Below, piece by piece: positions 45,451 to 48,125 of a stretch of 50,038 bases of DNA. Position numbers and translations under genes: made by a program. This DNA comes from Bdellovibrionales bacterium (GTDB lineage: Bacteria; Bdellovibrionota; Bdellovibrionia; Bdellovibrionales; UBA1609): contig JBFWVI010000021.1 of assembly GCA_050246815.1 (NCBI GenBank), positions 1-50,038 of the forward strand, given 5' to 3'. The notes below the pieces were generated by a model that ran no database searches, was not told where the DNA came from, and saw only the letters and a program-made list of their open reading frames with translations. Position 1 is the stretch's first letter, and each line of letters opens with the position of its first letter.

Positions 45451-46641
45451 TCAAATCATTTGATGCAGCAATTGGATGGTTTGTTCGCGCTTATCTGGAG
45501 TCACCAGCACGGTGATGCTCAAGGGGCTTTGTAGTGTTTTTTCGACAGAGATTCCAGCGGCGTGTAACTTCTGCAGCAGTTTTAGATTTAAGTCTGTGGC
45601 CACGGATCCATGGCAAGTTAGAGTGATCGAAGACAACGGCGGACGATGGACCTTCACGCTGCCGCTGGCTTCAATGGCACGCTTTAAAGCGGCCAGGTGT
45701 TCGCCATCTGAGGTGTACATCGCACGAAATTTTCCGCTGTCAAAAGCGCTGGCCAAAATTTGCGGTAGCGGCAGTTGTCCGGCGCGCAAGACCGCGACGA
45801 AACGTTCAAGGCCGTCGCTGGAGGAGCCAACGCCGGGAACTTCAAAGTGATGCACCTCATGATGAGAGTTCACGGCCAGAATTTTTTGATTTTCAAACAT
45901 GGGAACCTCACTGCGGACTTCGGTGCCGCGCTTGTGATCATCTGAAAAACGAAGACTCAAGTTCACTTTCATCTGATGGGCCAATTCGACGGAACGATAG
46001 TGCAATATTTTAGCGCCCCAAAAACACATATCTAAAAGACTGTCGTGGGTGATGGTGGGGTAAACTTTGGCGCTCGGGACAATACGCGGATCGGCAGAGC
46101 AAAGGCCGTCGACCTCTTTGATGATTTCGCAAGCTTCGGCCTTGCATGCGGCGGCCATAGCCACAGCGGTGGTGTCGGATCCGCCGCGCCCAAGTGTGGT
46201 GATCTCTTTGGTGGTGGGGTCGACCCCTTGAAAGCCGGCCAGCACGATAACTTTGCCGCGTGCGAGCTCTTCGCTGAGCCGCGTCGGCCGCACGTCGATA
46301 ATTTTGGCGTTGGAATGGGAGCTATCGGTCATCACTCCGGCTTGGCTGCCGGTCAGGCTGATGGCCTCGACGCCCAAATCGCGAAGGGCCATGCTCATAA
46401 GCGACATGCTGATCCGTTCGCCCGTGGTCAAAAGCATGTCCAGTTCGCGGCGGCTGGGCTCGGGGCTTGCCTGGTAGGCCAATTTAACCAGTTCGTCGGT
46501 GGTTTTGCCCATGGCGCTGACGATGACCATCATCGAATGGCCGCGCTTATGGCGCTCGGCGACCTTGGCCGCAACAGCCTTGATCTTTTCAGGCGTGGCC
46601 AGGCACATGCCACCGTATTTCTGCACAATCAATGAACCCAT
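45451..46641 (-). CDS. lysC: Aspartate kinase
   Basis: [42 protein letters not shown]; probable ATG at 46641; ACT-type C-terminus. Confidence 0.93.
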
Positions 46642-46687
46642 GCTGTGGTGATAAAGGAGTTTAGTGGCGAAGTCAAAATGACGCACT

Positions 46688-46713
46688 TCTTAACCAAAAG
46701 GTGCCAGGCACCT
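46688..46713. repeat. Copy 2 of the 26-bp palindromic dispersed repeat
   Basis: Identical to 490-515. Confidence 0.85.
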
Positions 46714-46726
46714 GACCCAAATTCCC

Positions 46727-46757
46727 AAAAAAAAGGCCGTCACCAGGGTGACGGCCT
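46727..46757 (-). terminator. Intrinsic terminator (minus strand)
   Basis: AGGCCGTCAC-CCTG-GTGACGGCCT followed by a T run. Confidence 0.88.
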
Positions 46758-46860
46758 AAAGTGCAAATCTTATAGCAAAATTGCTTTTGGTTTAAGATTC
46801 GACACGGTCTTTGTTGATTTTTGGGACCGCTTTCGCAGACCCTAATTTCAACGCGGACGT
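46727..46860 (-). ncRNA. Candidate sigma54-dependent small RNA (~134 nt, three stem-loops)
   Basis: -24/-12 promoter upstream; hairpin with GAAA loop (46823-46842); A-rich linker; long hairpin with GCAA loop (46761-46805); terminator; no ATG-initiated ORF inside. Confidence 0.55.
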
Positions 46861-46870
46861 ATTGGGATAT

Positions 46871-46886
46871 TGCAAGGGTGTTGCCA
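46871..46886 (-). promoter_or_regulatory. Candidate sigma54 promoter of the small RNA
   Basis: Minus strand TGGCAACACCCTTGCA: GG-N10-GC with TGGCA and TTGCA. Confidence 0.65.
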
Positions 46887-46966
46887 ATGCTCAAAGCCAC
46901 GTGAATTGGATTTCATAGAAAACACAGGGAAAAAGTCCACGTTGTGAGGGAATTCTGACTCACGTT

Positions 46967-47875
46967 TTAGAGTTGAGTGCGGATGTACTGCGACACGGCA
47001 AGCGTATAGCCGGTGGGAATGCGAATCCGATGGTTCTTGATGTTACCGGGAACAAATCCCTTCAGCAGTTCGGGGTTAAGTCTTTGCAGCATCGAGGCTT
47101 CGACCCCCACTGCAGCGGCCAGGTTGATCAAGTCCGTGCCACCGGGGACATAAAAATATTCATATCGATAGGGCTCATTGGGAACAATGTCGGTAAACCC
47201 ATAGAGTTTTGGCACTTTTGCGATCAACATCGCCGCCAGCATTTTTGGAATGTAGTCACGGGTTTCAGCGGGGAAATCGGATTTTTTTGATAACACCCAA
47301 TAATTGTTGGTGCCATGCTTGGCGATCAGTCTTTTCAAGCGGCCCTCACCCATATTGTAGGCGGCAGCAGTCAGATACCAGGACCCGAACATTTTGTACA
47401 AGTCACCCAGGTAGCGTGCGGCAGCGGTGGTGCTTTTTTGAAAGTCGCGGCGCTCATCAATCCACCAATTGATCTTGAGCCCATAGCGTGCGGCCGTGCT
47501 GCTGATGAATTGCCAATAGCCGACAGCCGAAGCCGTGCTTTCGGCATGTGGCGAGAAACCACTTTCGATCATTGAGATGTAGGCAAGATCCTGAGGCATG
47601 CTGCGCTCACGCAGCAGACGTTTCATAATCGGCAGGTAGCGATGCGATCTTTCAAGACGAGTGTGGTACCACTTTTTGCCGCGGCCTTGAAAGTAATTGA
47701 TCCATTCTTTGACCTTCACATTGTAGGTGACCGGGATGTCAAAAAAGGGTTGCGCGTCCACGGGGGTGTAAGTGGCCGGGCGTGAGGTGGGGACGGCAGA
47801 CCAAACCGCATTGCTGAAAAAGCAAAGGGTCAGGGCAAGCGTGGTGAACATCCTGTTCATCGGGTTTTCGGTCAT
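46967..47875 (-). CDS. Lytic murein transglycosylase, MltD-like (SLT domain plus LysM-like remnant)
   Basis: MIESGF, AVGYWQFI, DERRDFQKST, AAYNMGEG, ETRDYIPK, LQRLNPEL; signal peptide. Confidence 0.9.
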   Translation of the reverse strand: MTENPMNRMFTTLALTLCFFSNAVWSAVPTSRPATYTPVDAQPFFDIPVTYNVKVKEWINYFQGRGKKWYHTRLERSHRYLPIMKRLLRERSMPQDLAYISMIESGFSPHAESTASAVGYWQFISSTAARYGLKINWWIDERRDFQKSTTAAARYLGDLYKMFGSWYLTAAAYNMGEGRLKRLIAKHGTNNYWVLSKKSDFPAETRDYIPKMLAAMLIAKVPKLYGFTDIVPNEPYRYEYFYVPGGTDLINLAAAVGVEASMLQRLNPELLKGFVPGNIKNHRIRIPTGYTLAVSQYIRTQL

Positions 47876-48109: not shown

Positions 48110-48125
48110 TGGCACATGGCTTGCT
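48110..48125 (+). promoter_or_regulatory. Sigma54 promoter of the flgFGA operon
   Basis: TGGCACATGGCTTGCT matches TGGCAC-N5-TTGCW, upstream of SD GGAGG and ATG 48154. Confidence 0.8.

Follow-up and report, generated by a model that had tools for sequence, protein, structure and literature searches.

Does the 329-nt gap between mltD and lysC in the window (the whole analysed stretch of 50,038 nucleotides, from source genome G000) contain a small RNA gene of its own, and how might such an RNA act? A first-pass annotation had proposed an independent sigma54-driven small RNA on the minus strand of this gap, with a -24/-12 box at 46886-46871 and a predicted transcription start at 46860, and had linked it to the neighbouring flagellar rod operon. 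The box is present in the sequence (Table 1), and the unit that it precedes likely belongs to a new, patchily distributed family of candidate standalone sigma54 small RNAs, of which we know five members from three genomes. The reading we prefer, to which we assign a probability of roughly 0.4, is a standalone small RNA gene whose activator-dependent sigma54 transcript would work through its shape, in all likelihood as a binder or decoy of a protein. That the unit represents a real standalone RNA is highly probable; given such an RNA, the chances of a protein-binding mode are about even.

Table 1. Features of the mltD-lysC junction, in positions of the window
Feature	Position	Strand	Remark
MltD-like (SLT) lytic transglycosylase gene	46967..47875	-	upstream neighbour
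Inverted repeat GTGAG-N10-CTCAC	46944..46963	.	~90 nt upstream of +1; candidate activator site
Sigma54 (-24/-12) box TGGCA-N6-TTGCA	46871..46886	-	sequence, spacing control, homologues
Predicted small RNA, 134 nt	46727..46860	-	+1 predicted from the box
Hairpin 1, extended: outer GUUGA/UCAAC stem, internal loops, apex	46813..46852	-	pair probabilities 0.96-1.0 for outer and apical pairs; z -4.7, 0 of 1000 shuffles as stable
GC-GAAA-GC cap	46829..46836	-	GCGAAAG is the only 7-mer in four of five units
Junction between hairpins, AAAGACC, 7 nt	46806..46812	-	2-7 nt in homologues, sequence unlike
Hairpin 2: 3x3 internal loop, A/U-rich apical helix, GCAA loop	46761..46805	-	z -4.6, 0 of 1000 shuffles as stable
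Intrinsic terminator, 10-bp stem (46757-46734) and 8 U	46727..46757	-	stem matches consensus GCCRYYAC-loop-GTRRYGGC
REP-type palindrome, 26 genome copies	46679..46713	.	neighbour, outside the RNA
Putative sigma70-type lysC promoter TTGACT-17-TATCAC	46648..46676	-	read by eye
Aspartate kinase gene lysC	45451..46641	-	downstream neighbour; relatives start at the matching codon

Counted over the whole genome the box is not enriched, with 27 sites at the spacing of 6 versus 12 to 34 at spacings 2 to 11. At spacing 6, non-coding sites make up 19 of the 27, and an SD-led ORF follows 11 of them; each of the nine other spacings gives only 1 to 7 and 0 to 2, respectively. This bias indicates that the box is a real promoter motif in this genome. 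RpoN is encoded, and the sigma54-activator domain has 18 matches in the genome, 13 of them strong. The raw count, in which the box alone is no commoner than its mis-spaced controls, would suit a locus without any transcript of its own, in which chance hairpins and a chance box adjoin a terminator of mltD; the terminator would indeed also stop mltD transcripts. Homologous units that retain box, spacing and fold at sites remote from mltD (see below) speak against this explanation, and we consider it highly improbable. Furthermore, a contig from a second study (one contig, depth 2) spans positions 46599-46850 with a single change, located in the REP loop and outside the RNA; the unit is thus not an assembly artefact.

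The divergent flgF-flgG genes nearby have a sigma54 box of their own at 48110. Most sigma54 boxes of the genome, as judged by eye, precede proteins with signal-peptide-like starts, flgF being one target among them, which suggests that sigma54 is not only flagellar in this organism. In addition, the unit is missing between mltD and lysC in 49 relatives, so that its linkage to flagellar genes or to lysC is positional only, and its homologues lie beside unrelated genes. The link to the flagellar rod operon is therefore not supported, although the RNA may still have a part in motility or in the life cycle. Among the sigma54-type sites of three genomes of the same genus, none of the 20 read (out of 73) resembled the unit.

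The predicted RNA is unusually stable as a whole (z -5.2; 0 of 200 shuffles equally stable) and also when the terminator is removed (z -4.9 to -5.5; 0 of 1000 shuffles as stable). Two hairpins with GAAA and GCAA loops and a strong U-tract terminator, as described in the first-pass annotation, are seen in the sequence. The "unpaired A-rich stretch" placed between the hairpins fared differently: its UCAAC is predicted to pair with GUUGA at 46852-46848 (probabilities 0.96-1.0), which leaves about 7 nt (46812-46806). Half of this linker thus belongs to the hairpin 1 stem, and the predicted fold leaves no seed exposed; the linker, which is moreover not conserved in the homologues, loses its proposed role in target pairing. 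No 6-nt stretch outside the U-tail has a predicted unpaired probability above 0.2 in the window RNA, or above 0.3 in any of the five units. The absence of an ORF led by ATG and SD, also noted before, holds true: the predicted RNA contains no AUG, and none of the five units contains an SD-led ORF. A frame of 19 codons that starts with UUG and lacks an SD is readable in the RNA and is not kept in the homologues. RNAalifold on two sequences gave an alternative pairing between the junction and the 3' strand of hairpin 1, with three double changes; this pairing is missing from single-sequence folds, even when the apex is constrained to stay open, and G004 gives no clear sign of it, so that it may be taken as a weak lead.

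The annotation had not recognised the RNA as a known one, and Rfam likewise yields no known family: only terminator-level matches, far below cut-off, were obtained at E up to 10 for the window and up to 1 for the four homologue loci. The location directly upstream of an aspartate kinase gene, whose start is likely the ATG at 46641, raises the question whether the unit is a cis-acting leader (a riboswitch or attenuator) of its downstream gene, comparable to a lysine riboswitch. A gene follows on the same strand in four of the five units, and at one of them (G004 C25) it begins 21 nt past the U-tract, without room for a promoter of its own, which points to some read-through. On the other hand, the fifth unit faces a convergent gene, the downstream genes are unrelated to one another, and no lysine or other riboswitch family was detected at E up to 10. 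Blocking the 3' strand of the terminator gains at most 1.6 kcal/mol from the 5' strand in any unit, which argues for neither an antiterminator nor a switch. The putative promoter of lysC is found also where the RNA unit is absent: G003 shows TTGACT-17-TATTCC at the matching place. A leader function is therefore very unlikely. This putative lysC promoter is located, as read by eye at 46641-46676 and in the relatives L025, L030 and L031, only about 7 nt before the ATG, suggestive of a leaderless mRNA in the family.

Evidence that the unit exists independently of this locus comes from four homologous units, three in G004 and one in G061, which represent other genera of the host's family. The pattern by which the first of them were discovered consisted of the box and a U-run 112-142 nt later, and held no hairpin or stem information. 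It matched in 25 of 109 family genomes, and three matches in G004 showed the layout of the unit. These three share the terminator stem GCCRYYAC-loop-GTRRYGGC, which was absent from the pattern, and two of them also share GCGAAAG with the window. In 384 genomes of the order, the terminator stem followed by a U-run occurs in four genomes, namely G000, G004 (three times) and two with ordinary gene ends, while the box combined with GCGAAAGC gives nine matches, among which the only units are that of G000 and two of those in G004. A model built from three units recovered the held-out G004 unit with 42.4 bits and detected the new unit in G061 with 60.6 bits (E 6e-8); the next matches, at 33 bits, were gene terminators without a box. 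A second model scored the shortest unit (G004 C26) at 44.6 bits versus 42.6 bits for an ordinary terminator and added no member.

Other searches did not extend the family. A BLASTN-type search of the genome itself and 60 relatives returned short chance matches only and missed the homologues in G004 although this genome was included; a single-sequence model (R1) likewise missed the homologues, and in 109 family genomes gave, besides the source, one 22-bit match in coding-looking DNA. Model R3 revealed no new member in the 109 family genomes (22 of the 33 other matches were inspected) and two matches, a gene terminator and coding DNA, in 80 other genomes of the order. The RNA model searches scored 26-36 candidates per genome, so that weak members can be missed. 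A relaxed pattern yielded two extra matches in 401 genomes of the phylum, both without a terminator, and the relaxed combination of box and U-run recovered G061 only in 80 family genomes. Among all GTDB genomes the pattern, which would not have caught the G061 unit, matched 61 stretches, six of them with a U-tract; three are the G004 sequences, and the other three, from beta- and gammaproteobacterial records, are unlike the units. Viral contigs gave 14 chance matches without a U-tract, then none. As a separate observation, the betaproteobacterial records L166 and L204 both show a sigma54 box, a structured body of 110 nt with CTCCTGCAAGCG at its end, and a terminator, and may represent another candidate small RNA family.

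The distribution of the family is narrow. The unit occurs as a single copy in G000 and was not found in the three other species of the host genus (74-96% complete) or, apart from G004 and G061, elsewhere in the family, so that it does not qualify as a core regulator. In a tree built from MltD, LysC and FlgF (50 genomes; G061 left out) G000 and G004 are not sisters, and the spread therefore appears patchy, either by transfer or by loss and divergence elsewhere. Judging from their taxonomy, carriers of the G004 type would lead a predatory lifestyle.

What do the five units have in common? All show the three-hairpin layout, with lengths of 134, 134, 138, 135 and 121 nt, and all keep TGGC-N7-TTGCA. 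Body identity is only 50-60% (z of the body alignments 0.8-4.0), a similarity so weak that G004 C26, the shortest unit, may be a distinct RNA. Without their terminators the five bodies nevertheless all fold into two imperfect hairpins (z -4.9, -2.9, -2.3, -4.1 and -3.4). A GC-GAAA-GY cap is present in four units and a C-UCCG-G loop in the fifth; the GAAA cap and ACUUU are the only words of at least 5 nt common to four of the five. Base pairs of hairpin 2 are kept with changes in G061. Across four units, double changes affect seven of the 20 named pairs (three of these pairs in the terminator), and 91% of cells pair compared with 30-41% when slid; as the structure was derived from the same four sequences, these counts lean toward it and are supportive, not proof. 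Taken together, sequences and predicted folds suggest that shape, not sequence, has been kept across the five units. The flanks show no similarity, nor do the upstream regions resemble one another (z 1.2 or less). Each unit resides in a different intergenic context, the homologues next to PfpI, FAD/Rieske oxidoreductase, Hpt and CBS-domain genes. Some of these neighbours are of the general-stress type (PfpI with its own sigma54 box, the FAD/Rieske oxidoreductase and the CBS-domain protein, at the L103, L133 and L228 units), and hybrid histidine kinases are encoded close to two homologous units. The recurrence of one box, spacing, length, fold and terminator in unrelated places, together with the missing antiterminator, lends support to the independent sigma54-driven small RNA postulated by the first-pass annotation.

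At the mltD-lysC junction itself the unit seems to be a newcomer. In 32 of 49 relatives lysC lies at most 203 nt from mltD, in three the distance is 786-1193 nt, and in 14 the two genes are not adjacent. None of these 49 has a sigma54 box in the gap, and no unit follows mltD in the 29 loci read, in the 49 measured or in seven close metagenome loci; neither does one precede lysC in four genomes in which mltD and lysC are apart. The unit is thus a lineage-specific occupant of this junction. The displaced or distant lysC in 17 of the 49 relatives hints at an insertion hot spot, and by eye RAYT-looking transposase-like inserts follow mltD in L024 (G002) and L036 (G085). The REP palindrome lies 14 nt beyond the unit and is missing from the flanks of the homologues. 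In two landfill runs it draws a contig pile-up from other organisms, and elsewhere in the genome an ORF for a Y1 (RAYT-type) transposase (G000:C22:29958-30728; L311) has a REP copy on either side.

Conceivably, the unit is a non-coding cassette, mobile or relic, that does little or nothing for the host and whose stems were kept by recent descent or by whatever moves the cassette. Five units at five unrelated loci, in lineages (G000, G004) which are not sisters on the three-protein tree, would agree with this, as would the filling in G000 of a gap of at most 203 nt in 32 of 49 relatives and the REP palindrome just beyond. However, the units share no ends, terminal repeats or flank similarity, no transposase is found beside any of them, G000 has one copy, and viral contigs gave no match. 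Moreover, promoter bases and spacing are kept at a body identity of 50-60%, which implies selection for transcription. A functionless cassette is accordingly unlikely.

A shape-selected, protein-binding small RNA would account for these observations as follows. A self-contained unit of promoter, RNA and terminator, about 160 bp long, would be transcribed from 46860 by means of RpoN and a sigma54 activator of the host. Selection would act on a pair of adjacent imperfect hairpins, each 40-50 nt long, with a stable tetraloop cap, and insertion would have brought the unit to the mltD-lysC junction in this lineage. The RNA would then act through its shape by binding or titrating an RNA-binding protein, a partner that is hypothetical. 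Hfq was not found in G000 (99% complete), nor ProQ in any of five genomes, so that neither should be this partner in the host. CsrA is present in all five genomes, and is an unlikely partner because the units contain only 0, 0, 1, 1 and 1 GGA. Shape as the conserved property fits protein binding better than seed pairing, and redundant dispersed copies are typical of protein-decoy RNAs such as CrcZ/Y and RsmY/Z, as far as these are covered in PMC8395346. Against the decoy function, known decoys carry repeated binding motifs, while the only word shared here is a common stable tetraloop. The G004 C25 unit, which leaves its downstream gene no space for a promoter, counts against the preferred reading as well. 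An extended version seems rather improbable to us: a portable cassette of about 160 bp would spread among loci and genera of predatory-type bacteria although it encodes no transposase, and its twin hairpins would decoy, by shape alone, an RNA-binding protein that is not yet known to be targeted by small RNAs, in bacteria where neither Hfq nor ProQ was found.

The closest analogue is probably the Pxr small RNA of myxobacteria. In the available descriptions (PMC5568312, PMC5684412, PMC11928866), Pxr likewise has a sigma54 promoter, a length of about 110-140 nt and three stem-loops ending in a terminator, is lineage-restricted, and occurs in a host without Hfq as diverged paralogues, each with its own promoter, whose direct targets are not known. 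According to the same descriptions, Pxr stays behind nla19, an activator gene, has its paralogues in tandem and conserves the sequences of SL1 and SL2. Pxr itself exists in a long and a short form and controls development. Our units, in contrast, are scattered, lie beside mltD/lysC, PfpI, hybrid kinases, Hpt and CBS genes and not in the position behind a sigma54 response regulator that nla19 provides, keep shape more than sequence, and do not match the Rfam Pxr model (E up to 10 for the window, up to 1 for the four homologue loci). A regulator that pairs with mRNAs in the manner of Pxr would be a standalone sigma54 RNA in which processing or partial melting, for instance of the A/U-rich hairpin 2 apex, exposes a seed able to act without Hfq, and whose paralogues have diverged toward different targets. 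Pxr, as described in PMC5568312, offers a precedent in its sigma54 control, its ~108 nt with three stem-loops and a short processed form, its diverged paralogues and its hosts without Hfq. By eye, a U-rich GUUU(U)C run lies 3' of the hairpin 2 apex in four of five units. Seeds are usually the best-conserved part of such RNAs, going by what PMC5568312 reports, whereas no word of at least 5 nt other than the GAAA cap and ACUUU is found in four of the five units. In a crude scan of 976 gene starts, performed without a shuffled control, the best net energy was only -8.8 kcal/mol and no target stood out. We regard such base pairing as possible but doubtful.

Qrr RNAs use Hfq and carry a pairing core that is highly conserved across copies. 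The units differ in both respects, as they lack a conserved pairing core and Hfq was not found in G000. They resemble Qrr1-5 of Vibrio, in the portrayal of PMC3730234, as several dispersed sigma54-driven copies, of about 100-110 nt in Vibrio, with terminators. CrcZ/CrcY and RsmY/RsmZ also exist as redundant dispersed copies, which act by protein titration, and CrcZ is driven by RpoN; it measures about 407 nt, has repeated A-rich Hfq sites and needs Hfq, and the Rsm RNAs contain many GGA motifs (all as outlined in PMC8395346). Compared with these, the units are short (121-138 nt) and almost fully paired, with 0-1 GGA and no accessible A-rich windows, in a host in which Hfq was not found.

A standalone ligand-binding RNA has to be considered as well, in which, as c-di-GMP-I riboswitches do, the GAAA cap would dock on hairpin 2; such an RNA would sponge a small molecule. 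A GNRA-capped hairpin indeed stands beside a second hairpin of similar height, and by eye the 3x3 internal loop in hairpin 2 looks similar to a tetraloop receptor. A riboswitch RNA of the standalone type is known from Bdellovibrio: according to PMC3627812, the merRNA and APsRNA1-7 of Bdellovibrio bacteriovorus are, like our unit, standalone intergenic RNAs of a related predator, and merRNA carries a c-di-GMP-I aptamer. The units, by contrast, do not match RF01051; this model lists three places in G000, one at 73 bits, and none at this locus. They also lack an enclosing P1 helix and conserved junction letters, and the receptor-like loop is not kept in the homologues. Ligand binding of this kind is hardly to be expected. 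The 73-bit c-di-GMP-I riboswitch in G000 (C26:32004-32092; L053) is followed by a terminator and an apparently convergent gene, and is possibly a standalone merRNA-like RNA itself.

One of the eight B. bacteriovorus RNAs, APsRNA5, shows a likeness to the unit, with 15 of 16 letters shared with the hairpin 1 region by eye (compared with the sequences in PMC3627812). Kinship was rejected on inspection of four such loci, which were not scored by the model and which show a sigma28-type -10 box, an SD and an ORF of 29 codons, and no sigma54 box. At these APsRNA5-matching loci (L314, L315, L317 and L318, around 1500) the -10 box reads GCCGATAA and the 29-codon ORF is conserved; APsRNA5 may thus be a small-protein mRNA under FliA, though PMC3627812 lists no FliA promoter for it.

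The genomes also contain a second class of candidate sigma54 small RNAs (G000:C1:65309, minus strand; L128, at G004:C3:112032; L310, at G010:C8:25001), laid out as a box, a C-rich unpaired stretch resembling an anti-SD (CCCUCC-like) and a terminator. The member in G000 comprises 55 nt and has the C-rich run in the terminator loop. At first look, these candidates seem better suited to base-pairing than the twin-hairpin unit.

No description of the RNA family presented here was found in the abstracts and openly accessible papers surveyed. Regulatory RNAs of Bdellovibrio-like bacteria are almost uncharted; the literature we found comprises one transcriptome paper with eight attack-phase candidates, none of them tied to sigma54. 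The distribution of the family is narrow and patchy and its hosts are uncultured, which limits its use. Hfq and ProQ are apparently missing in these bacteria. A family which keeps promoter, size and fold, but neither sequence nor position, could serve as bait for the missing RNA-binding protein, and the same family may provide a marker for the sigma54 regulon.
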